DNA of 64,000 bases, taken from positions 1 through 64,000 of the IMG/VR virus record IMGVR_UViG_3300042892_002669, one strand, 5' to 3'. The notes below the pieces were generated by a model. That model saw only the letters and a program-made list of their open reading frames with translations, was not told where the DNA came from and ran no database searches. The stretch is from a virus. The position numbers and the translations under genes were made by a program. This document shows, piece after piece, positions 9,648 through 62,163 of the stretch. Position 1 is the stretch's first letter; each line of letters opens with the position of its first letter.

Positions 9648-12600
9648 TTACTTTAATCCACTTAATTTCAAGAATTCAGCCATTAAGTCATTGGATTCAC
9701 TTACTTTTACTGAAGTATGTGGCAATGTGGTTTGATCGCGCTTTCTTCTGTTCAATCCACCAGATATAGTGTTCATCATAAAGTCTATATCTTGGTCAGC
9801 TTGGTCATCGGCTGAATTGGCATAGCTTTCTTCAACTTGTTCTTCAACTTCGTCTTTTTTAGATTTCTTTCTCTCATCACGAGCAGCATCCCATGAAGCT
9901 TTATCGTTATGATCTCCGCCCCAATTTTTTGGATTATCAGGATTTTCGTCATCTTCTTCGTCGTGTTCTTCGTATTCATCAGGATCGTCAGCTCTGGCTT
10001 CGTCTACCATTTGACCGTGTTCGCAAGAGCCTTCAGACATGCCACATTCATTGCATGAGCCTGATTCTTCTTCGTCGCTGGATTCTTCATCTGCGTAGTC
10101 GTCACTGGATTCGTCTGATCCAATACCTGACATCTTTTTCATCAGTGACAACATATCGTCACCACCTGATTCACCATCATCAACAGTGATAAGCGCAGTT
10201 CCTTCGTGGTCTTGATCACCTGACATGGGCACACCATAGTTAGAGAACTTGGTTGAGTCTTCTTGCTTGTTGCCCATGCCGCCTAAACCAGCGTTTCTCA
10301 TGATAGCCATGACTTCTTGTGCATCTGCACCCGAAGCAGTAACTGAGATAGTGTCATCTCCCTGATCGCCCTGTGTGGTGGATATAGTTAAACTTTCAGT
10401 TAATAACGAATTCAACTGTCTATTCCAACTTTCTAATTGTGTGTCCATATTTTTGCTTTCCTTAACATCAAAGTGTTTGTCGCCCAGTGTAAATGACTCT
10501 TTACCTGCAGCCTTTGCCATTTTTGCTGCATAAGTAAATGGACTTTCTTCTAATTCAGCTTCATCAATCTCTGACTTGCCTGTGGCAAATCTACCTAAAC
10601 CTGTACCTATATCAGATACATCTTTCTTGAATATGCTGAATGCGCCTTGTTTTTCTTTACTGCATTCACTTGCGGGCCAAACGTCCATGTCACCTGAAGC
10701 GGTGTGTACAAAACACTTGTCGCCTTCAACACGATCAACAGTTCCAGCAGTACCTCTCCAGTACACTGTTTCACCTGAATCAAATGCTTCTGGCAGCATG
10801 GCTGTTTCTGATGTTATCTGTGGTGCTCCCATGTCTTCTTGGAATCTGTTATATACCCATTGATGTGGATCGCCTGTACGTGCTTTGGCTATGCCATATG
10901 GAATCTCACCGCTGTCAAGGTAGTAATCAAACAGGGCCTCATATAAATCATCATCCATGTCCATATCTGGATTGGCCATGAACTGTTTGACTTCATGCTT
11001 GAATCTATTGGTAACATGCGCCAATGTATCATGCGAGTCTTCCATATGAATGCCTTCTTTGACAGTTTTCTTTGCTCTTAGTGCAGCAAAATCTTTAGCA
11101 TCTAATTTACCTTTTGGTGGGGCAACGTCAAGTTTCTTTTGACCACCTTTAAGACCTTCAAGTAAATCGTCGAGTGCGGCTGAATACGCCATGTGTACAA
11201 ATTCTTGTGTGTCTGGATGATTGCCACCTATTGTCCAATCCATTCCAGAAATATTGTCACTGTCAGGATATATAGTAGCAATTAATCCATTACTAAATTC
11301 TAATACCCACGTGCCGTCATCACCAGGAGGACCAAATGCAAATTCTAAATCTTCTGCGTTCGTTCTTAATGACCCCTGTTTTGTTGTACGGTTTGCCTTC
11401 ATTCCAGGATCATCACTGATGTTCATGGGAGTAATATCAAACTTGGGTAGATAACGTTTATCGTGTTTTGATCTGCCAAACATGCCTTCGTCTTGCTCGT
11501 CAATCTTTTTAGCAATTTTGTGTGCCTTGACAATTGTGCTTTTCTTCAGTGGAGGCTCGTCATCTGCTGCTTTCTTAGCCACTGCCATACCAATTGCATA
11601 TTTGTTTTTGGCTTTGGCTTCATTGATAGCTGCTTCTGATGATTCAATCCAATCTTTCAAACTGGATTTCTTCTCTTTGTACTCTGGGCTGCCCTTGGGT
11701 GGTTTGTCTGACAGTGTATGTCTGGTTACCTTGGTTGGGTTTGCTTTTGCATAAGATTTGCTCTCTTTATCTGAGGCACGCTTGGCAGCAGTGTCTTTTG
11801 GATTGGTAGCAACTACGTCACCCTTTGGACGACCACGCCCTTTTTTCTCAGCTGGCGCTTTGGAAACTGTAGTACCAGTATCTTCATCATCTGAGTCACC
11901 TTGGTATTCAGCGCCATAGCTGCCTGAATACTTCTGTCCCTTGATGTCAGCCATTTTAGCTTCGTTCATTGATATAGCATCCATGATGCCAAACATTTTT
12001 TTAAAGTCCATACTCATATGTGTTTCCTTAGATTCCTTTGTTATATTACTTAACTGCTTGATGTGCGCTAGTGCATCATCGCCTTCTTTTACTTGAGATT
12101 TGTCGCCGAGGCCAAAAAAGTTTTTAACTGCAGACAAGTTCCTGTCTCCAGATGCTTTTTGATCTGCTGCTTGTTGCGCAGCCTTTTCGGCGCCTGGATA
12201 CTGTTTGCCATAGTTGCTTTTGTTACTGTCCCATGCAATTTCATCGGGGCTTCTGGTAGTGTACAGGCCGCCAGTGCCAGTAGTTGTACTACCACCAGTA
12301 CCAGTACCTACAACTTGTGCTCCTGGTTCCAGTACAGGTTTGCCAGCGCCGGCTTGTGCTGCACGTAATTCAGTTGCTGCATCGGCAGGACTCATGCTAC
12401 TAATATTTGCTGGCAATGGCATTTTTGCATTTTGTGGTTCAATTATATTAGGCTGCATTGTATTGTTACTACCGCCGCGAGTTGCTGGCTGACTGGTAGT
12501 AGTATCTTCACCTGATTTATAATTGGGATTTGGTTTTCCGCCTACATATTGATATTCTGATGGTGTTGGACCACCAGCTGTTGCACTTGCTCTATCCGCT

Positions 12601-13679
12601 GTAGCTTGAGCTTGACGTTTGATGTTAGCTGATGCATTATTCGTAGGTGCCACTGGTTTAACTGCGGCCACCGGTGGTTGTTCACCAGTTGTAGTAGTGT
12701 TGCTACCCCGAGGAGCTTGTGCAAGATTTGATTGTGCTGCAATTCTTTCTCGCTCTCTACTGGCAGCATCAGGTCTTGCTGCGATTGCCAGCTTGGATGG
12801 TGGTGGCTTGACTGCAGGTGTTACCTTAGCTGGTATTGGCTTTGTTGGTAACGCCGCGTTAGGTGTAGTATTGAGCGGATATGTTCTTGACGGTAAACTT
12901 GCATTGTTGGCTGGCTCAGAGGCTGACCTCACCGGTGCTGCAGGTGTTGTTGCTACTGGTGCTGCAGGTGTTGTTGCTACTGGTGCTGCAGGTGCAGGTG
13001 CTGCGTTGGATGTGTTTGGTGCTGCGTTAGGTGGTGTTGTTGCTGCAGGTGCTGCAGGTGCTGTTGCTGCCCCAGAAGGAATCGCACCATACAATGCTTC
13101 TTTAGCAGCATCGTAGGCAGAAACGGCCGCGTATCCCAAGGCGCCAGCGCCGGCTAATGCCTTTTTTGGATTGTTCCATGCCAATTTTGCGGCATCAACT
13201 GCTCTGCTGGTTGCACTGGGCGTGTTCGCAGCCAGCGCAGCTTTCGCAGCTTTAGCATCCATAGCAGCTTGAATCTGTGGGGGTATTCGTTCATTCTTTG
13301 CACTTGCATTACTAAGATCGCCTTTTGTTGCGGCGGCTTTATCAGTAGCAGCCTTCTCAGTAGCAGCTTTCTCAGCAGTAGCAGCTTGGGCCGGCTTGGC
13401 CTTGGCAGCAGCTGGATTAACTAATATACTTTTTCCGGTATTAGCATTAGTCGAACCAGTTGGTACTGTATTTAATTTAGCTGTTGCAGGTTTAGCTTGT
13501 ACACCAAATTTGGACTTAAAATTAGGGTTGTTAACTTTACCTCCACCGCCACCTCCTGGAAAACCGCCTCCACCTAAATCAGGTGACATGAATGGATCTC
13601 CCCGGTGAGGGCTAGATTTTCCTAGATCACCCATGTATGTGTCGGCGTACGCCTCAGACAATATATTCTTGATCTTCAT
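9648..13679 (-). CDS. Large low-complexity probable internal head/core polyprotein
   Basis: 1343 aa, Ala/Pro-rich then acidic; many (L/I/V/M)xE|(A/S/G) sites; starts MKIKNILSEA, ends FLKLSGLK. Confidence 0.7.
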   Translation of the reverse strand: MKIKNILSEAYADTYMGDLGKSSPHRGDPFMSPDLGGGGFPGGGGGGKVNNPNFKSKFGVQAKPATAKLNTVPTGSTNANTGKSILVNPAAAKAKPAQAATAEKAATEKAATDKAAATKGDLSNASAKNERIPPQIQAAMDAKAAKAALAANTPSATSRAVDAAKLAWNNPKKALAGAGALGYAAVSAYDAAKEALYGAIPSGAATAPAAPAATTPPNAAPNTSNAAPAPAAPVATTPAAPVATTPAAPVRSASEPANNASLPSRTYPLNTTPNAALPTKPIPAKVTPAVKPPPSKLAIAARPDAASRERERIAAQSNLAQAPRGSNTTTTGEQPPVAAVKPVAPTNNASANIKRQAQATADRASATAGGPTPSEYQYVGGKPNPNYKSGEDTTTSQPATRGGSNNTMQPNIIEPQNAKMPLPANISSMSPADAATELRAAQAGAGKPVLEPGAQVVGTGTGGSTTTGTGGLYTTRSPDEIAWDSNKSNYGKQYPGAEKAAQQAADQKASGDRNLSAVKNFFGLGDKSQVKEGDDALAHIKQLSNITKESKETHMSMDFKKMFGIMDAISMNEAKMADIKGQKYSGSYGAEYQGDSDDEDTGTTVSKAPAEKKGRGRPKGDVVATNPKDTAAKRASDKESKSYAKANPTKVTRHTLSDKPPKGSPEYKEKKSSLKDWIESSEAAINEAKAKNKYAIGMAVAKKAADDEPPLKKSTIVKAHKIAKKIDEQDEGMFGRSKHDKRYLPKFDITPMNISDDPGMKANRTTKQGSLRTNAEDLEFAFGPPGDDGTWVLEFSNGLIATIYPDSDNISGMDWTIGGNHPDTQEFVHMAYSAALDDLLEGLKGGQKKLDVAPPKGKLDAKDFAALRAKKTVKEGIHMEDSHDTLAHVTNRFKHEVKQFMANPDMDMDDDLYEALFDYYLDSGEIPYGIAKARTGDPHQWVYNRFQEDMGAPQITSETAMLPEAFDSGETVYWRGTAGTVDRVEGDKCFVHTASGDMDVWPASECSKEKQGAFSIFKKDVSDIGTGLGRFATGKSEIDEAELEESPFTYAAKMAKAAGKESFTLGDKHFDVKESKNMDTQLESWNRQLNSLLTESLTISTTQGDQGDDTISVTASGADAQEVMAIMRNAGLGGMGNKQEDSTKFSNYGVPMSGDQDHEGTALITVDDGESGGDDMLSLMKKMSGIGSDESSDDYADEESSDEEESGSCNECGMSEGSCEHGQMVDEARADDPDEYEEHDEEDDENPDNPKNWGGDHNDKASWDAARDERKKSKKDEVEEQVEESYANSADDQADQDIDFMMNTISGGLNRRKRDQTTLPHTSVKVSESNDLMAEFLKLSGLK
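12934..13070. repeat. In-frame tandem repeats (24-bp unit GGTGCTGCAGGTGTTGTTGCTACT encoding PAAPVATT, plus degenerate copies)
   Basis: Two exact copies and further partial copies read directly. Confidence 0.85.
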
Positions 13680-13897
13680 TTTCTACTACCTCTAGCGTCT
13701 AATTTTTCTTCTATTCTAGCCAACTGCTGTTGTACTGCAGTTAATTTTTCATTAGTGGACTGTGCTTTAACAGTGATCACTTCTACCTTTTTGTCTAAGT
13801 CAGCCATGGCAGTGTTCATGGTCATGTATCCTGTGCCACCCAAACTACAGGCGCCGATAACTATCCAAGTCAACTGGCCGGAGCTGAAGTCTATCAT
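13676..13897 (-). CDS. Small single-TM coiled-coil protein
   Basis: Hydrophobic LTWIVIGACSLGGTGYM followed by heptads ending LARIEEKLD. Confidence 0.7.
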   Translation of the reverse strand: MIDFSSGQLTWIVIGACSLGGTGYMTMNTAMADLDKKVEVITVKAQSTNEKLTAVQQQLARIEEKLDARGSRK

Positions 13898-14487
13898 TTT
13901 CTAGCTCCAGTGGCTGGCTTAGGAGGACGACTAACACTGGTCATTGGACTCTTGGTTTGTATGTTCTCTTTAGATTTGTTGGGCGCTGTGGGTGTTTTAT
14001 CACCTGCATAGTCAATAGTGACGCTTGGTTCTTTGGGTAACACTTTATCCAAATATTGATTGCCATAGTCTTTGTTTGCCTGCTCTGCGCCACTGTCAGT
14101 CTCATATGGACTGGTTATCAATGGGCTTGCCTGATTGGCGTATTGATCATTCTCACTGTTGATGCTGTCATCGTACTGTGAAGAAATCACTCTCACTGAG
14201 TTTATATTCTTACCCAACAATTGAGCCATTTGCTGAATCATTGGTTCAGTGGCAGGGTACTTGAACTCTGCTTTAAAGATATGAACTGACTCGTTTTTCA
14301 GATCAGGAAAGCCGTATGGGTCTTTCATGATGGGGATAGTTTTTGGATCGCTGACACTAACTGGATCAAATTTGTTCAAGTTGTACTTGAACATTTCAAT
14401 AAAATTCTTATCGAGATCACCTGCTATCTTAATAGTGTAATGGTATGTTCTTACACTTTCAGTTAAATATTGACGTAGACTTTTCAT
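13894..14487 (-). CDS. Hypothetical head-associated protein
   Basis: Start MKSLRQYLTES after AGGA RBS and late promoter at 14508-14515. Confidence 0.75.
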   Translation of the reverse strand: MKSLRQYLTESVRTYHYTIKIAGDLDKNFIEMFKYNLNKFDPVSVSDPKTIPIMKDPYGFPDLKNESVHIFKAEFKYPATEPMIQQMAQLLGKNINSVRVISSQYDDSINSENDQYANQASPLITSPYETDSGAEQANKDYGNQYLDKVLPKEPSVTIDYAGDKTPTAPNKSKENIQTKSPMTSVSRPPKPATGARK

Positions 14488-39828: not shown

Positions 39829-40518
39829 TTATAATCTTGCATCCTGTTGTTGTTTAATAGCAGCAGTCAATTTTACTAAATCAGCATCTGACAATTTAGG
39901 CAGTAAATCTGAAACTGATTTTAGCGACACTGTTCCTGCTTCTGCGGCTGGTGTTTCTTCCTTAGGAGTACTTGCTTTGATTGCTTGGAATAGCAATTCG
40001 CCAATGTCCTTAAGTTCGGCTGTGCCACGGGTAGATTGGTAATTCTTTGCCAGCTGGTTACACAGATTCATTATGTCATAATCGTACGGTGCTATATTTA
40101 CTCCGGCGGCGTACTGTTTGATAACCTTGTTCAAGTATCCTGCCAGATCAAATTGATCTGGGCTGGTTCCTGATTGCAGGATACGTTGATTTTCTGCCTT
40201 GACCGCATCATAGTTGGGATCCGTGGGGTTAATCGTCTTGCCCCCATAAACTACAGGTTGGTTGGCCGCAATAGCCTGCATATTTTTCTGTGCTACTGTA
40301 TAGGCTTGCTGTTGTTTTTGTATTTTGGGCCACACAATAGCTAACATGCCGCCGATTTTTTTGGTAAATTCACCGATAAAATGACTTTTTTTCAGAGCAT
40401 CTTGTGCATATGTGGCACCCTTTGAGTATCCGGCTGCTGCTCCCAAGGTGCCTATTCCAGCCTTGATCCAATCAGTGATTGCTTCATTAATTGTGCTGTC
40501 AACTTCCTGGAGTTTCAT
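39829..40518 (-). CDS. Hypothetical probable internal head protein
   Basis: MKLQEVDSTINEA start. Confidence 0.7.
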   Translation of the reverse strand: MKLQEVDSTINEAITDWIKAGIGTLGAAAGYSKGATYAQDALKKSHFIGEFTKKIGGMLAIVWPKIQKQQQAYTVAQKNMQAIAANQPVVYGGKTINPTDPNYDAVKAENQRILQSGTSPDQFDLAGYLNKVIKQYAAGVNIAPYDYDIMNLCNQLAKNYQSTRGTAELKDIGELLFQAIKASTPKEETPAAEAGTVSLKSVSDLLPKLSDADLVKLTAAIKQQQDARL

Positions 40519-52401: not shown

Positions 52402-52647
52402 TCAATAAGGTTCGTCTTCGTCTTCGTCGTACTCGTCCAGATCATCGTCCAGTTGATCCGCATAAACTTTTAATGCAGTGGCAATGTCTTTGTCGCCACG
52501 GAAAGCAAATGCTGCCTTGATATCTGTGGGATCAGCATTATTTTCTATCATGTAATGCACGATAGAATCTGCTGCATCCTTGCGTTCATTGAAATCAATA
52601 TGATTACGCAACACTTCCCAAACTTCTGCAACTATATCTAAATTCAT
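52402..52647 (-). CDS. Hypothetical acidic protein
   Basis: 81-aa ORF between uvsX and uvsY. Confidence 0.7.
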   Translation of the reverse strand: MNLDIVAEVWEVLRNHIDFNERKDAADSIVHYMIENNADPTDIKAAFAFRGDKDIATALKVYADQLDDDLDEYDEDEDEPY

Positions 52648-53753
52648 TAGACCATCTCCTGTTCAATTGCTGGGTCATCTGTTTGTTCAACTTGGTCAAC
52701 CACTTCCTCATCTGGCGTTGCCGTTGATTTTTTCACACCATTGCTAAATTCAGTCATCACGGTGTCCAAGCAGTTGTTCTCATTTGATTCCCAACCCTTG
52801 CGGAACTGCTTGATAACAACACCATCGCCAGTGGTGTAAGACAATCGGTTGCCTTCTTTGGTGAGCAGTCCATTTTTCTCAAACAAGTCAAGCAAGCCCG
52901 AATATGGATTCATACCAGTGCTGTATGGAATCTTGATCTGCAGAGTTTCAAAAGGTTTGGCGTATCGTGTTTTCATAATCTTACATGCGGCACGAATACC
53001 ATTTACTTCTGAGACCTTGTTACCATCTTCATCTTCTTTGAGCTTGAGCTTCTTCATTGCAACCAGAATACTACTTGCGTATACGAAGCCCTGACCACCA
53101 CTTACTTTATCATCTGGATCAAACATATCCTGACTGGCGTATGTGTGATTGGTAGCTACCATACCAATGTTCAAGCTACCAAACATATTTACTGAGTTAC
53201 GTACAAGTGAGGCCAGTGCTTTGGGCTTACGACCCATGTCACCTTTCATGTCACCTGCTTCAAACTGATTAACGTCAGTTGGAGTCAGTAACATGCCCAA
53301 ACTGTCAATAACAAACAATACTTTTGGACGATCTTCCAAAGGCAATGTCTTGTAATCTGTTACAAACTTGCTTACTGTTTTAGCCACATCGTCAATCATG
53401 GCCATGTTTAATTTTAATAGTTTATCTTCACCGGTGTCAACGCCCAGATCATGCAACCACTTTTCATCTAGTGCATTTTCCGAATCGATGAGAACCACAA
53501 AGATACCTTGCTTTTGTGCGTGTCTAACCAAGTTGCCACTGCATATAAAGCTTTTCCCTGATCCAGATTCACCAGCAAATACAGTGACTTTGCCCAAAGG
53601 AACGCCTTTGTTAAAATCACCACTGATAAGATAATTGAGTGCATAATTTCCTGTACTGATCCAATCGGTTGGATCATTAAAACCTATACTAAGACCATCG
53701 ATGCTCTTAGTAATTTCCCGTCTAAATTTTGATACGTCAAATGGCTTTGCCAA
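52647..53753 (-). CDS. uvsX: RecA/UvsX recombinase
   Basis: GESGSGKS, IDSENAL, IDSLGML, NHTY, SGGQG..YASS; TTG start after AGGAG. Confidence 0.95.
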   Translation of the reverse strand: MAKPFDVSKFRREITKSIDGLSIGFNDPTDWISTGNYALNYLISGDFNKGVPLGKVTVFAGESGSGKSFICSGNLVRHAQKQGIFVVLIDSENALDEKWLHDLGVDTGEDKLLKLNMAMIDDVAKTVSKFVTDYKTLPLEDRPKVLFVIDSLGMLLTPTDVNQFEAGDMKGDMGRKPKALASLVRNSVNMFGSLNIGMVATNHTYASQDMFDPDDKVSGGQGFVYASSILVAMKKLKLKEDEDGNKVSEVNGIRAACKIMKTRYAKPFETLQIKIPYSTGMNPYSGLLDLFEKNGLLTKEGNRLSYTTGDGVVIKQFRKGWESNENNCLDTVMTEFSNGVKKSTATPDEEVVDQVEQTDDPAIEQEMV

Positions 53754-54038: not shown

Positions 54039-55037
54039 TTATACCTTAGCCTGGCGTGAGCGAATCATTGCCAAAATATCTTGGGCTTTGTCGCTTGACG
54101 GTGCTGGAGCTTGTGCAGCGACTGCTGCGGGTGGAGTTTCAAATTGGTCGTCACCTGTCCAAGGAGCAGTAGCAGGTGCTGCTGCAGGCTTGCTGGTTAC
54201 CACTGTTTCAAATGTATCAGTGGCGGCCTTGACTGCACCAGCTGGTGCATCCAAACCATATGGACGATAGTATGCACCCCAACGTTCGTTGTCGTAGGGT
54301 TTACCATCCACACTTGCCTCAAACATTTCTTTCATGATGCGCAGTTCTGCTTCACCAGGTTTCTTTGGCAAGAATTCTGACAGATTGAAAAGACCATGTG
54401 CTTCAATTGCAGCTTGTTCAGCCTCAGTCAATGCACTTTCTTTACGACTCCAAGTTGAAGTGCTATAGTCTGCATAGCCACCCTTGGATGTTTTAGTCAC
54501 GCGGAAATCAAGACCCTGCATGTAGTCAGTGGGCAGGTTTTCCATTTCAGGATCCATCAAGCTGGACTTGATAATGGTAAAGATTTGTGGACTGATGATG
54601 AAACGACGAATTGGATTCGCAGGAGCCTTGTCATCACCAATTGGATTCTGACGTACAAAACCCTGAAACAGGTAGCTGCGTTTCTTCCAGTACTTGTTGG
54701 CCATTTCTTTCAATGACTCATCTTTGTACCAGGGACGTACTTCTGCCAAGATTGGGCAGCTATCGCCATACATTTCTACGCATGGAACTTGTACCACAAC
54801 TTGTTTGCTATTGCTATCACCCTTGACACCATTGAATGGCAGCTTGATTACTTGACGCTCTACCCAGAAGAAAGTGTTAGCTGCGTCACCGTCTGGTAAG
54901 AAACGAATGGTAGCGTTGGTACCTTCTTCCATATTCCAATGGGCGTAGATTGAGTTGTCGCTTTGGGTAGGGGATGCTGATGATGATTTGTTTTCTTGTG
55001 CCGCGATACGGGCACGAATTTCTGCTAATGAAGCCAT
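54039..55037 (-). CDS. gp32: Single-stranded DNA-binding protein (gp32-like)
   Basis: IRFLP, C...GD.CP, YWKKRSY, G.DF...K..KGGYADYSTS. Confidence 0.9.
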   Translation of the reverse strand: MASLAEIRARIAAQENKSSSASPTQSDNSIYAHWNMEEGTNATIRFLPDGDAANTFFWVERQVIKLPFNGVKGDSNSKQVVVQVPCVEMYGDSCPILAEVRPWYKDESLKEMANKYWKKRSYLFQGFVRQNPIGDDKAPANPIRRFIISPQIFTIIKSSLMDPEMENLPTDYMQGLDFRVTKTSKGGYADYSTSTWSRKESALTEAEQAAIEAHGLFNLSEFLPKKPGEAELRIMKEMFEASVDGKPYDNERWGAYYRPYGLDAPAGAVKAATDTFETVVTSKPAAAPATAPWTGDDQFETPPAAVAAQAPAPSSDKAQDILAMIRSRQAKV

Positions 55038-55191: not shown

Positions 55192-57468
55192 CTACTTTAT
55201 TAACCCAGATAGTCTGCGCATTGCAGCCAACTGGTCAGTACTCTCGTCTACACCAACCAGATCGCCTGGTTTGGCACTAAGAAAATCTCCCAATTCTTCT
55301 GCACCACGGCCCCGTTTACCACTTTGATGTTTCCATTCAGAACCAACACGAACAATTTTATCACCGTCGTCATTTACATAAACACGACTGTCGTCCGTGT
55401 AGTACCCAAAAGAATTTAGGGTCGATATCAGAGTATCTTTTGACTCAGAGCCTTCCGACACACCTTGCTCTTTATTTGCTAACTGGTCTAACTTGTCATA
55501 GCGGTCAAAATGCTTCTTGGAAGTTTTGGTATCGCCCTTCATACTGGCATCTTGTGACTTGGCAATTTCTTGTCCAGCACGACTTTTAACATCTTGACCT
55601 GTAGCCAAACGCTTGATATCTTTTCCCAAGCCCTCCGCCACACCTTGCTCTACTGGTCGTTTGAAATTTGGACGAGGTGCTTTACCACTCAGAAACTTCC
55701 CAACATCGGACCAATGACCCACTACTTGGCCTTGTTTGTTTAGTGCTACGATTTTATCATCTTTTTTCGTAATAGTATATCCACTACTTTTAGCCTGATC
55801 TTTCCAATCATACCAACTTGTAAACTTATCAGATTCATTCAATGAGCCTTCCGCTACACCTTTTGTGACCCGAGCAACACCTACCTGCTGATCTTTTGGC
55901 TCAATTGGCTGTTGACCTTGTTCTTGTTCCTTGCGCTTTTTTGCAGCCAGGTCTGCCACGCTACCTTTGCGAGGCTTTTTTGCACCGTAACTGAATGGAC
56001 CAGCCTCCGCCACACCTTCTTTGGGTTCCTGTCTGTCGTACTGACGTTGAGCGCGAGCCTGACTATCATCGGGAAATTGATGGGGTTTCTTGGGTGATTG
56101 GTATTGGTCACCGCGAATGCCTTTGTACACACGCTCACCAGTTTCAGGATCATCCTCGTAGTGATGACGTTCACCTGGACGTAAACTCTCTGCCACTTCT
56201 GGAGTCATGGGTCTTTCAATCTTGTCTATCACACTGTGCATGCGATGGTCATCCGATTGTTCCATCCAATTGATAATGGTTTCAACTGCATCTGCATCAG
56301 GATCTTGCTCTGACAATTCTTCCAGTAGGCCGTTCAACTGATCATCTTCCAAGTTTACCGAAGCCAACATTGCTTTTGCATTCATTGCATTTGGCCCAAC
56401 CACAATCTCATCACTCAACATGCCTGCCAAATCATCCAACTGAGGCATACTCTTGGGTGCTAATCTTTCACTGACCAATTGATCGGCCCACTCTGACAAT
56501 TCAGATATTTCAGCCACTTCATTCATAGAATTGCGACCTCGGCTGATCTTGGACAATATGGGCATGGCGCTTTCTATTCTTGGATCCAATGTGGCGTTCA
56601 TAAACATCTCACTGAGATCCGCACCAGCTGCGTCTTCTATTAGAGTGGGTGACCAATTGTCAAAATGTTCATTGTAGCCACGCTTGCCTGCCATTTTGCG
56701 CAATGACTCACGCAACTGCAGATAGTGTTCAGTGCCTTCTGTGACCAATTGTTGTGTGCTTTCATTGAACTGACCATTTTTAGTGGCTCTGACAAAGCCT
56801 GCCATTTTGGTATAGTCTTCGCACATCTCTCGGATATGATTCCAACGCTCGTCGTTTGGTAATCCACCTTCAGCTATGTGTCTGGCGAAAGGTCTGGCCA
56901 ATCCAGGTTTGGTAGTTGGTGCCAGTACTCGTTCACCCAATGAGTTCTCAATAAAGATTTGAGCAATGTTTCTGTAGCGTTGCTCACCTTCTTCTATTTT
57001 GCGGGTGTGCTTGATCACCATCTTTACTGTGGGAACTGCATCGCTGTAGCTGCCTGACTTGCCCATGGGGTAGTAACCCTCATCCAGTTTTTTTGTGTTT
57101 TCTCTTTTTGCCATATCGTATTTTAAATTGTCAATATCACTTAATTCAAATTTGCTTACTTTACCAAATGTCAGTTTGCGCAATCTGGCAGTTAGTTCGT
57201 GGAAACTGAGCATGCCATCATCAGTTGAACCAGCTGGACTCCCAGCAACGTCATCCCCAAAGTACAGTGTAAGTTCACCAGTGCCGTCGATTCCTATAGT
57301 GATAGTTCCATAGTTTTCTCCGTCTTTGATAAAGTTAAACTGAAACACATCGGCGTCATCGGTTATAGCCATTTCTTTGCCCGACGAATCCAGCATGGTT
57401 GGCTTGTATCCGTTGGTCTTCAAGAACTTGAACACTGTGGCTTTTACTGAGTTTTGGTTAATTGGCAT
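55192..57468 (-). CDS. Probable head-associated polyprotein with C-terminal repeat-delimited modules
   Basis: 758 aa after late promoter 57491-57498; GVAEG-bounded modules; ends MRRLSGLIK. Confidence 0.75.
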   Translation of the reverse strand: MPINQNSVKATVFKFLKTNGYKPTMLDSSGKEMAITDDADVFQFNFIKDGENYGTITIGIDGTGELTLYFGDDVAGSPAGSTDDGMLSFHELTARLRKLTFGKVSKFELSDIDNLKYDMAKRENTKKLDEGYYPMGKSGSYSDAVPTVKMVIKHTRKIEEGEQRYRNIAQIFIENSLGERVLAPTTKPGLARPFARHIAEGGLPNDERWNHIREMCEDYTKMAGFVRATKNGQFNESTQQLVTEGTEHYLQLRESLRKMAGKRGYNEHFDNWSPTLIEDAAGADLSEMFMNATLDPRIESAMPILSKISRGRNSMNEVAEISELSEWADQLVSERLAPKSMPQLDDLAGMLSDEIVVGPNAMNAKAMLASVNLEDDQLNGLLEELSEQDPDADAVETIINWMEQSDDHRMHSVIDKIERPMTPEVAESLRPGERHHYEDDPETGERVYKGIRGDQYQSPKKPHQFPDDSQARAQRQYDRQEPKEGVAEAGPFSYGAKKPRKGSVADLAAKKRKEQEQGQQPIEPKDQQVGVARVTKGVAEGSLNESDKFTSWYDWKDQAKSSGYTITKKDDKIVALNKQGQVVGHWSDVGKFLSGKAPRPNFKRPVEQGVAEGLGKDIKRLATGQDVKSRAGQEIAKSQDASMKGDTKTSKKHFDRYDKLDQLANKEQGVSEGSESKDTLISTLNSFGYYTDDSRVYVNDDGDKIVRVGSEWKHQSGKRGRGAEELGDFLSAKPGDLVGVDESTDQLAAMRRLSGLIK
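55451..56022 (-). repeat. Four dispersed ~20-bp direct repeats (core AAGGTGT(G/A)(G/T)CGGA(A/G)G) separating unique in-frame modules
   Basis: Copies at 55451-55470, 55631-55650, 55847-55866, 56003-56022; periods 180, 216, 156 nt. Confidence 0.85.
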
Positions 57469-57496: not shown

Positions 57497-59050
57497 TCAA
57501 CTCATCACTGCATAGAAGGGCAGCGGGGGCAGGAATTCGTCATAATCTCTGATTTGAGTCTCCAATTCCATGTGAAAGCTGCCCAATTCTTGTATCATTC
57601 TGACTATCAGTAGCGTAGACATGACCAAATCATCAGTTTCTCCCGATTTTGCTGCATAACTGCCACCATGGGCCACAAAAGTCTTGAGTTCACTTATCAG
57701 ACTGCGGCTGTTTATCTTCATCTTCTTGGATTCTATCAACTGCTTTAGCTTGGCGCATGCTGCCAGTTTACTCTTGTTGGTGGTGTTAAATCCCTTGCGT
57801 TTTTTAACTCCAGACTCCGTTAGCATGGTGCCAGGTATGTTGTGCTCACCATATTCATGCAGCGACACATTGGCAGCTTCGCCTATACTATTGTTTTCCA
57901 AACTGTAATAGATATTGTTTGGTTCGCCCGTACATTCAACTATGTACTTGATAATCTGCGTGATCAATTTAACTTGCTCGGGGATCGCGGTTTTGTTGTG
58001 CTTCCATTCACCAATCTGGGTAGTGGAGTTTGCTTCAAATATTTGTATAGCCGCTGGATCGCCACCAGTGCCCAAACTTGGATCCAGTCCAATAACATAA
58101 ATGTTGCCTTTGGTTGGTTGCTTGTACCAACGAATTTGTCCCTGTCTGGTAGTGGGTTCAACTCCTTCAAGTTCAAACAGTGCATTGGCATTGATCAGTG
58201 TTTCATCTGCAATGATAAATTCAATTTCCATTTCACGACGGAATCTGTCATCACCCAACTGTGCTCGCATACTGGTAGCCCAGGCTTCATCACGTTCAGG
58301 ATGTGATCTCCAAGTGGCTTTGTACGCACGGAATCCATTGATGCCCAATTCTGTTTCGTTGCCATACTCATCTTCACATTTGTTTGCACCTTTCCAAATC
58401 AGTGCAAATTGATCTTCGTCACTGTTTGGTGTGCTGGTTATAATTGCTTTACCACCAGTTGATAGTGTTGGAGTAATGGATGTCCAGAACTCTTTGGCTA
58501 TGGTTGGTCTTACGAATGCAAACTCGTCCAAGTACAGTAGTGAGATAGATAGACCACGACCTGTGTTTTCAGTTGTAGTTGCGCTTATGATACGACTGCC
58601 GTTGTCAAAGTCTATGTTACCCTTGTTGTAGGTGACCGCCCCTGCTTTAATATGATGAGGACAATTCTCATATGCATATCTTACACGAGACATGATTTCT
58701 TGTGCGCCTGCATATTTGTGCGCTGCAATCAGTATAGTAGTATCAGGTACAAACATAGCGTACCACAAGAGGTAACCTGCGGCACTGGTTGATTTACCTG
58801 TTTGTCGTGCCATCAAGCTGATACTGAATCGGTAATTATGATAAGTGTGTATCAGTTCTTTTTGGAAATCCCATGGATGATAGAGCAAACTGCCGCGAGT
58901 TGGATGCTGTATATAGAAGAAATTGTCCATGAAGTAGAGATATCCCATGATGGGATCACTACATTTTACGAAATCGTCCAGTTGCTGTTGATTGGCAAAC
59001 GTGGTTTTCTCGTAAGGAGTTTTTATTAACGCGGTGATATTTGTACTCAT
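57497..59050 (-). CDS. gp17: Terminase large subunit (gp17-like)
   Basis: ARQTGKST, YLDEFAF, ITSTPN, GLDPSLGTGGD, DDLVM. Confidence 0.95.
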   Translation of the reverse strand: MSTNITALIKTPYEKTTFANQQQLDDFVKCSDPIMGYLYFMDNFFYIQHPTRGSLLYHPWDFQKELIHTYHNYRFSISLMARQTGKSTSAAGYLLWYAMFVPDTTILIAAHKYAGAQEIMSRVRYAYENCPHHIKAGAVTYNKGNIDFDNGSRIISATTTENTGRGLSISLLYLDEFAFVRPTIAKEFWTSITPTLSTGGKAIITSTPNSDEDQFALIWKGANKCEDEYGNETELGINGFRAYKATWRSHPERDEAWATSMRAQLGDDRFRREMEIEFIIADETLINANALFELEGVEPTTRQGQIRWYKQPTKGNIYVIGLDPSLGTGGDPAAIQIFEANSTTQIGEWKHNKTAIPEQVKLITQIIKYIVECTGEPNNIYYSLENNSIGEAANVSLHEYGEHNIPGTMLTESGVKKRKGFNTTNKSKLAACAKLKQLIESKKMKINSRSLISELKTFVAHGGSYAAKSGETDDLVMSTLLIVRMIQELGSFHMELETQIRDYDEFLPPLPFYAVMS

Positions 59051-61791: not shown

Positions 61792-62163
61792 TTATTTTCC
61801 AAATCCCTTAAAGGCCATCATGGGACTTGACTTGTTGGTACTGTCCAATTCCTCACTCTTTAGATCACCTTTGTTAAGGTCTTGGTAATCGGCGCCTGCC
61901 GCTTTGTAAGCCTGCTTGAGCATTTTTTGCTCTACATCAGTGTATGGATGAGCCGTTCTTTGCTTACCCACCCAGCTGGTTGAGTTGATGTCTATAGGAT
62001 TGGTTCCATCTGCACAAGCCGCTGCCATCATCACACGATTAAGTGTGTAATCACTGTTTGCTTGTTCCTTATCGTGAAACAAATTAAGACCTTTTGTGGC
62101 CTTTTGTTGGCGTTTGGTAATCTTACCTTTTTTGGCTTCGCCTATGAATTCTTTTGCTCTCAT
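61792..62163 (-). CDS. Hypothetical probable internal head protein
   Basis: MRAKEFIGEA start, 5 nt after CTAAATA. Confidence 0.75.
   Translation of the reverse strand: MRAKEFIGEAKKGKITKRQQKATKGLNLFHDKEQANSDYTLNRVMMAAACADGTNPIDINSTSWVGKQRTAHPYTDVEQKMLKQAYKAAGADYQDLNKGDLKSEELDSTNKSSPMMAFKGFGK

Follow-up and report, generated by a model that had tools for sequence, protein, structure and literature searches.

Exchangeable protein modules bounded by a translated, DNA-uniform junction in a gene of an uncultured giant T4-type phage

The locus and its modules

The window analyzed here is a stretch of 64,000 nucleotides (nt), positions 1 to 64,000 of IMG/VR record IMGVR_UViG_3300042892_002669, from an uncultured freshwater giant T4-type phage. 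The subject of this study is a gene on its (-) strand at 55192-57468, recognized as an open reading frame (ORF) and by its translation, which encodes a protein of 758 amino acids (aa), designated P0001. In P0001 a conserved N-terminal core is followed by five short modules (cassettes), separated by a repeated motif (the junction), and by a C-terminal tail. The features are listed below; a slash within a peptide marks the candidate cleavage position, and the loose ends are those of contigs from four lake-metagenome runs.

55192..57468, (-): whole gene P0001, with a 420-aa core, five cassettes (52-72 aa) and a 27-aa tail, from the ORF and its translation
56209..57468, (-): conserved N-terminal core, residues 1-420; more than 1700 homologues, 44 invariant columns
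56188..56208, (-): linker with the first candidate site PEVAE/S (E427); non-canonical codons (GCA)
56005..56187, (-): cassette 0, SLRPGERHH... module, 61 aa, residues 428-488; ends in J1
56004..56016, (-): junction J1, GGTGTGGCGGAGG; EGVAE/A, residues 484-489; loose end at 56006
55849..56004, (-): cassette 1, 52 aa, residues 489-540; also in P0003 and P0037
55848..55860, (-): junction J2, GGTGTAGCGGAAG; KGVAE/G, residues 536-541; loose ends at 55848 and 55862
55633..55848, (-): cassette 2, 72 aa, residues 541-612, alpha-beta3-alpha; DNA block at gene nt 1607-1850
55632..55644, (-): junction J3, GGTGTGGCGGAGG; QGVAE/G, residues 608-613; seven loose ends at 55629-55650
55453..55632, (-): cassette 3, 60 aa, basic, residues 613-672; DNA block at gene nt 1820-2024
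55452..55464, (-): junction J4, GGTGTGTCGGAAG; QGVSE/G, residues 668-673; loose ends at 55448, 55449, 55470 and 55474
55276..55452, (-): cassette 4, 59 aa, residues 673-731; DNA block at gene nt 1996-2204
55192..55275, (-): C-terminal tail, residues 732-758 and stop codon, ...GDLVGVDESTDQLAAMRRLSGLIK; near-universal in the family

A Pfam scan of P0001 gave no match. At the DNA level the junction follows the pattern GGTGTRKCGGARG, that is GGTGT(G/A)(G/T)CGGA(A/G)G on the coding (-) strand. This pattern occurs four times in the window against 0.22 expected, a count reached in none of 100 shuffles, and the whole 77,105-bp record holds no copy beyond these four. The repeats lie where the original prediction, made from the sequence alone, had placed four copies of about 20 bp on the coding strand; its figures of 52, 72 and 60 codons for the modules hold, and two further modules, of 61 and 59 aa, were found. 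The degenerate PEVAES copy that it located near 56185-56204 is present at nt 56185-56202 (residues 423-428). This copy uses GCA for Ala and is thus not conserved as DNA; a related P[VM]AE site lies behind the core in several family members.

Codon usage of the junction

In the 41 other ORFs of the window, GCG accounts for 6.9% of Ala codons, TCG for 4.5% of Ser codons, GTG for 22.8% of Val codons and GGT for 41% of Gly codons. The P0001 gene contains four GCG codons, three of them within junctions. The canonical junction is K-x-Q-G-V-A-E/G-S, encoded by the roughly 20-nt string (N)AG CAA GGT GTG GCG GAA GGC TC. Among 199 further non-redundant junctions, which were collected by peptide match and not by DNA, the codon shares are 88% for GCG (background 6.2%), 87% for GTG (19%), 93% for GGT (44%) and 98% for CAA (74%), and the codon preceding Q has G as its third base regardless of the amino acid (GAG, AAG or CAG). 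The earlier claim that synonymous positions are held applies to the four junctions, with their rare GCG/TCG codons, but not to the PEVAES copy; across the 199 junctions, synonymous conservation is far above codon bias.

A sister junction, [G/S/D]-M-A-E-G-Y, is present in a 1360-aa ORF of a 191-kb contig (L050). Its DNA, ATG GCG GAA GGC, retains the GCG GAA GG core, and the residue at P3 is Met.

Exchange of cassettes at the junctions

Whole modules are gained, lost and swapped at the junction. Relatives with different cassettes are 74-97% identical to P0001 in the shared part. P0002 and P0004, with 97% identity in the shared part, both have another module in place of cassettes 1-2, and the module that follows differs between the two. 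The sets also differ in P0003, P0005 and P0006 (74-85%): that of P0005 is made up of four other cassettes, and P0003 and P0006 have shared cassettes in a changed order. About nine junctions are present in P0061. All breaks between close relatives fall at G-V-A/S-E.

The gene or parts of it occur in runs from about 15 lake or freshwater metagenome studies. Contigs from four lake-metagenome runs of other studies show 16 loose ends; the four junction zones, 116 of 2351 nt in all, take in 14 of these (binomial p = 6e-17), and the remaining two are at 55276, where variants have a junction. The blocks of DNA homology to other loci (1607-1850, 1820-2024 and 1996-2204) start and stop within a few nt of the junctions, whose Glu codons end at gene nt 1620, 1836 and 2016, and of the tail border at 2193. 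A 2084-nt contig from an RNA library represents a gene variant without cassette 2, in which a 381-nt insert replaces cassette 4. A gene variant is present in metatranscriptome contigs (X15); this does not establish expression, since DNA may also be present in such libraries. Assembly chimeras are unlikely to be the cause of the variant contigs, because the repeats are shorter than the assembler word of about 31 bases, as assumed from the index word size.

Individual cassettes differ in their distribution. The module of cassette 0 lies behind an inserted methyltransferase module in P0018 and is replaced by another module in P0025, P0027 and similar proteins. Cassette 1 follows another cassette in P0006 and is missing from P0002, P0004 and P0005, and cassette 4 is found at varying positions in P0002, P0003, P0004 and P0006. 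Cassettes 2 and 3 also occur in unrelated ORFs of other lake contigs, always bounded by the same junctions. Cassette 3 is present in unrelated ORFs of L066, L067, L068 and L069 as well as in P0002 and P0065. About 25 proteins, 225-1301 aa long, contain cassette 2 at 94-100% identity, and its neighbors in them are of about 18 kinds on either side; in copies at 74-75% identity a canonical junction has been lost. In L071, L072 and L073, one and the same gene has whole cassettes present or absent. As the original prediction had anticipated, close orthologues differ in how many modules they have, in which ones and in their order, and the breakpoints lie at the repeat; single modules, flanked by it, also recur in other genes.

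Cassette 4 is joined straight to the tail at 55276 (...GDFLS/AKPGD..., the slash here marking the join), with no junction between them. Variant contigs read ...SNQGVAE at this position, and P0003, P0006 and variants have ...GDFLSSNQGVAE, extra cassettes and a segment ...QRVGQLGPKAKH. From this comparison of sequences, the fusion looks like a deletion that took out a junction. A similarity between cassettes 2 and 4, suspected by eye, was not significant (BLASTP E = 0.22; the only pair compared).

Spread of the junction

The exact 20-mer CAAGGTGTGGCGGAAGGCTC occurs in at least 120 IMG/VR contigs. It is read in frame as QGVAEGS in 89 of 99 seed occurrences in open frames, the other ten lying in spurious overlapping frames. 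A DNA-anchored search that allowed up to three mismatches to an 18-mer yielded 404 non-redundant copies, of which 240 are variant; 403 of the 404 fall within ORFs of 100 codons or more and are read in their frame. The 20-mer has a single match in 596 Gb of bacterial genomes, which is about the calculated chance number. That match (L202 7070-7089, in a Propionicimonas metagenome-assembled genome) was set aside as a chance one; it is intergenic, part of an inverted repeat that follows a stop codon, in DNA of 71% GC.

The array had been pictured as confined to one gene, and this does not hold: junctions occur in many unrelated genes, and the core of P0001 is present in only 7 of 116 junction-bearing ORFs. 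From 251 proteins, 327 internal cassettes with a median length of 71 aa were obtained, which form 183 families, 117 of them singletons. Domain matches in junction-bearing proteins include deaminase, GNAT, methyltransferase, cytidylyltransferase, DUF6321 and Tat-signal. By eye, single cassettes resemble a ParB-like nuclease, DGNHR (L066, L069) and a HicA-like toxin (L068).

Three neighbor families are shared by about 40% of loci L076-L195; by eye, one of the two commonest looks like a large DNA polymerase (ORF of about 920 aa) and the other like a Dps protein. The arrays may therefore have one common site in a replication-gene neighborhood and not among head genes. In the complete 524-kb relative G001:C1, junction pairs at 176505/176886 and 524058/524439, the second at the record end, both have a spacing of 381 nt; this may reflect the duplication of a cassette gene, or a terminal repeat.

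The junction as a candidate protease site

T4 gp21 cleaves after L/I-X-E (PMC9026906). The V-A-E or V-S-E of the junction agrees with the motif of an S77 gp21-like protease, which has a hydrophobic residue at P3, any residue at P2 and Glu at P1. In the 240 variant copies, mismatches at the three bases of each codon number 71, 10 and 5 for Q; 5, 20 and 14 for G; 20, 1 and 29 for V; 16, 12 and 25 for A; 1, 2 and 27 for E; and 19, 82 and 98 for the second G. Out of 77 changes at non-silent positions, the first two bases of the Glu codon and the middle base of the Val codon account for 4 and the Gly and Ala codons for 73 (p = 4e-11). At the protein level, 403 copies show three exceptions to Glu at P1 and one to V/M/L at P3, and P2, P4 and P1' are variable. 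Because Glu and the hydrophobic P3 residue are spared inside one homology block, the substitutions reflect a protein-level constraint of the L/I-X-E type, a pattern that would not arise from a pure DNA adaptor.

Four of six large junction-bearing records (G001, G003, G004 and G006) encode both an S77 protease and a capsid protein of the gp23 type. The capsid proteins of the relatives contain ...KKQLL[AS]E/SS[AV]GTTTAGNIA, in which LL[AS]E/SS presumably aligns with the maturation site of T4 gp23, and their scaffold proteins contain KLVAEG.

The six Tat-like RRGFLKG signals in the data, of a kind that requires a free N-terminus, all follow a junction at a distance of 3-7 aa and precede different mature parts. 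These twin-arginine starts, RRGFLKG with an Ala/Gly-rich stretch directly after the junction, are found in L141, L186, L108, L094, L120 and P0030. Such starts hint that some of the cargo may be sent on to the host periplasm. Among ten cassette families with a hydrophobic run, the run is at the cassette start in seven. We infer that the junction is a putative hydrophobic-x-Glu cleavage site of a T4-type prohead protease.

Core, tail and head association

The core is present in every homologue and the C-terminal part is variable. More than 1700 metagenomic homologues of the core are found, with lengths of 442-1068 aa among the best 120 listed. In the AlphaFold2 (AF2) model, the predicted local distance difference test (pLDDT) score is about 90 for the core and 73-84 for cassette 2, and every junction lies in a stretch below 50. 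By sequence homology the core belongs to the PA5oct gp278-type family (phrog_13484, virion structural; E = 2e-8): it is 24% identical to PA5oct gp278, and tblastn retrieved 11 PA5oct-group phages at E of about 1e-12 over residues 1-345. PA5oct gp278 is annotated in its record as a virion protein detected by electrospray ionization tandem mass spectrometry (ESI-MS/MS), and virion presence is known for gp278 only. Matches of the core in BFVD are uncharacterized proteins of uncultured Caudovirales, one of them named 'large polyvalent protein-associated domain'. A Foldseek comparison of the core fold with the PDB gave no match at E <= 0.001. A wide VIA-align search proposed a KA1-like fold for residues 2-106 (Z = 7.2, rmsd 2.8, 83 aligned) together with helical bundles; the match is middling and the fold was left unassigned.

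On one side, the P0001 gene is flanked by TerL, the T4-type large terminase (57497-59050), and on the other by a gp32-like protein (54039-55037) and then a RecA/UvsX-like protein (52647-53753). In PA5oct, the order TerL ... gp278 homologue ... UvsX is the same as the order around the P0001 gene. The 77,105-bp source record has a completeness rating of 22%, so the phage genome probably belongs to the several-hundred-kb class; homologues of P0001 were found on contigs of 280-524 kb.

The tail, the last 27 residues with the sequence end ...VDESTDQLAAMRRLSGLIK, is present in almost all family members. It resembles the C-terminus of the scaffold protein in complete relatives, ...NVIDI[KR]RLAGL, and also the end of a 1343-aa ORF of the window (9648-13679, (-)), ...LMAEFLKLSGLK / ...VSESNDLMAEFLKLSGLK. 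Among window ORFs of at least 60 aa, the L[SA]G[LI] ending is confined to P0001 and this ORF. A fold model of the G001 tail with the G001 capsid protein gave an ipSAE of 0.45 (best control 0.00), with contact agreement between runs of at least 93% and a partner pLDDT of at least 61. In the calibration, 51 of the 78 solved pairs passed the mark, as did 2 of the 108 mismatches; at ipSAE values up to 0.60, it was passed by only 5 of the 78 solved pairs and by all 4 passing mismatches. The model weakly suggests that the tail may dock on the capsid protein.

Because the gp278 homologue is found in virions, the gene order is shared and the tail is scaffold-like, P0001 is likely to be a head-associated protein.

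Four ORFs of the window other than P0001 have leaders with a hydrophobic-x-Glu end that resemble the capsid targeting sequence (CTS) of T4. They are the 1343-aa ORF, with the N-terminal leader MKIKNILSE/A, and three (-) ORFs at 61792-62163 (MRAKEFIGE/A), 39829-40518 (MKLQEVDSTINE/A) and 13894-14487 (MKSLRQYLTE/S). P0001 itself starts with MPINQNSVKATVF and lacks the 10-20-aa N-terminal leader ending in L/I-X-E that marks T4 internal proteins.

Interpretation and rival explanations

The explanation that we favor, with rather more belief than doubt, is that P0001 is a head-associated cargo polyprotein in which the junction serves both as an in-frame recombination patch and as a prohead-protease site. 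The core and the C-terminal amphipathic tail would hold between them a variable chain of small unrelated modules. Junction DNA would act as a phase-compatible homology patch, and recombination between any two junction copies, whether in one gene, in two genes or in two phages that infect the same cell, would insert, delete, replace or reorder modules with the frame intact. T4-type phages are very active in homologous recombination, and ordinary homologous recombination is the probable agent of exchange. The prohead protease would then cut the chain at the junctions into proteins of 6-15 kDa inside the prohead, and the released modules would be delivered with the DNA, as T4 internal proteins are. 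Copies with the canonical DNA would remain exchangeable and spread, and drifted copies would become fixed in place and decay. A wider proposal is that a coding string of about 20 nt acts at two levels in a large group of freshwater phages, as a universal in-frame adaptor by which small modules enter, leave or move between many unrelated genes and as a head-protease site, and so supports a phage-wide exchange market of injected effectors; on this our judgment is evenly divided.

Several points weigh against the favored explanation. S77 protease was not detected in two of the six large junction-bearing records (G002 and G005), and protease and capsid genes were not found on the phage's own 77-kb record, which is 22% complete. 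Cleavage at VAE/G, as put forward in the original prediction, has gained only indirect support, from the protection of Glu and P3, the S77 protease and capsid-protein motif of relatives and the Tat-like starts; no cut product has been seen. Conservation of the peptide is partly a by-product of that of the DNA, and the signal-like cassette starts could be relics of captured genes. No stand-alone cassette 2 gene was found, three short matches being contig-end fragments. The core and tail of P0001 are absent from 109 of the 116 junction-bearing ORFs, and packaging of these is conjecture. Finally, in the lineages of cassettes 2 and 3 (4 and 3 sequences only), synonymous change in the junction and in the cassette body is 0.19 versus 0.16 and 0.14 versus 0.17. 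Extra purifying selection on junction DNA was accordingly not seen in this tiny sample. Junctions accumulate synonymous change at about the pace of the cassette bodies, and the DNA uniformity therefore looks like concerted evolution through repeated exchange and turnover, not a function at the nucleotide level. In our reading, the junctions of unrelated cassettes share an ancestry much younger than that of the cassettes themselves.

The junction might instead be only a recombination adaptor and flexible linker, with the protein working as a single uncut polyvalent chain. DNA uniformity would by itself conserve the peptide, the junctions sit in disordered linkers, no cut product is known, most junction-bearing ORFs have no link to the head, and polyvalent proteins may act at full length (PMC5512222). 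This explanation, which we hold to be doubtful, does not account for the unevenness of the substitutions, with 4 of 77 at the key bases of Glu and Val against 73 in Gly and Ala, nor for the position of all six Tat-like signals 3-7 aa behind junctions. That a dedicated DNA enzyme, such as a site-specific recombinase or a homing nuclease, recognizes the 20-mer and makes the gene a true intragenic integron appears improbable. It is true that a nucleotide string is preserved, down to its rare codons and the G that ends the codon before Q, and that it is present in many unrelated genes. However, no gene family tracks the arrays: coarse BLAST clustering of 120 loci, which involved no integrase profile search, found no universal neighbor gene, and recurrent families accompany the arrays in at most 40% of loci. 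The junction also drifts at the cassette-body rate, and T4-type phages encode UvsX and gp32. The integron-like mechanism of the original prediction accordingly finds no support, as neither an integrase nor a universal neighbor gene was found in that clustering.

Least of all do we expect that the fixed codons serve translation, with the rare GTG-GCG pair or a Shine-Dalgarno-like GGAGG/GGAAGG string pausing the ribosome for module folding. GCG and GTG are rare in this phage and GGAGG occurs in two of the four window copies, but the common codons GGT, CAA and GAA are kept as tightly as the rare ones, so that the string and not rarity is conserved. Most copies have GGAAGG and not GGAGG, and pausing would leave the exchange breakpoints at junctions unexplained.

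A frame-preserving junction that makes modules interchangeable across genes and phages provides a route to fast evolution of multi-effector phage proteins, and offers a simple sequence handle for collecting cassettes from metagenomes. The 183 cassette families mostly have no known function; if they are delivered by the head, they are prime candidates for anti-defense or host-takeover proteins. If the protease link is correct, the arrangement is a natural design by which a single gene could load a phage head with several foreign proteins, and if the junction acts at both levels, it amounts to exon shuffling without introns.

Comparison with known systems

No published description of this junction system was found, and a search for GVAEG yielded no phage paper. 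The T4 internal proteins IPI, IPII, IPIII and Alt carry a capsid targeting sequence and are processed by gp21 (PMC3012670, PMC9026906). As proposed here, a short conserved sequence brings diverse small proteins into the prohead, where the prohead protease releases them after hydrophobic-x-Glu for ejection with the DNA. Conservation is limited to the targeting and cleavage sequence, the set varies between related phages, and CTS-like leaders also occur on other genes of this window. In T4, however, these are separate genes with an N-terminal leader, whereas here the modules are chained behind a 420-aa core and the conserved sequence is internal, repeated, DNA-uniform and common to many unrelated genes, its cleavage being putative.

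Polyvalent proteins (Iyer et al. 2017, PMC5512222), known from phages and from conjugative elements, are long and contain many unrelated domains; they presumably travel with the DNA and are then processed into separate units. A term search of that paper gave no mention of a linker, shuffling or a universal DNA-conserved junction. With its five cassettes behind the core, P0001 likewise has several unrelated domains, and junction-bearing ORFs have deaminase, GNAT, methyltransferase and DUF6321-type domains, with ParB-like motifs seen by eye. Processing of polyvalent proteins is ascribed to a zincin-like peptidase within the protein (PMC5512222). In contrast, Pfam scans of P0001 and eight long junction-bearing ORFs revealed no peptidase domain, including the zincin-like (MPTase) type.

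Polymorphic toxin loci (Rhs, CdiA, MuF-toxins) combine a conserved carrier, a short boundary motif and a variable module. New modules recombine in at the boundary DNA, which in Rhs is also a proteolytic site. Each gene at these loci has a single boundary with a single variable tip, for which orphan cassettes are the source, whereas here the same junction lies on both sides of every module and allows serial stacking and movement between unrelated genes.

In PeSL-mediated shuffling of T4-type phages, short conserved DNA motifs flank units that are gained, lost or replaced by recombination (PMC2839356, PMC4122927). PeSLs, which are promoter-terminator motifs, lie between genes and mobilize these as a whole, whereas the junction is coding, in-frame and translated. 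Integrons also consist of unrelated cassettes in series with a repeated site at the border of each, but they need an integrase, attI/attC and a promoter, none of which turned up here in the BLAST clustering of neighbor genes, and each of their cassettes is a gene of its own. The combination seen here, a translated, repeated and DNA-uniform junction common to many genes, is absent from these closest known systems.

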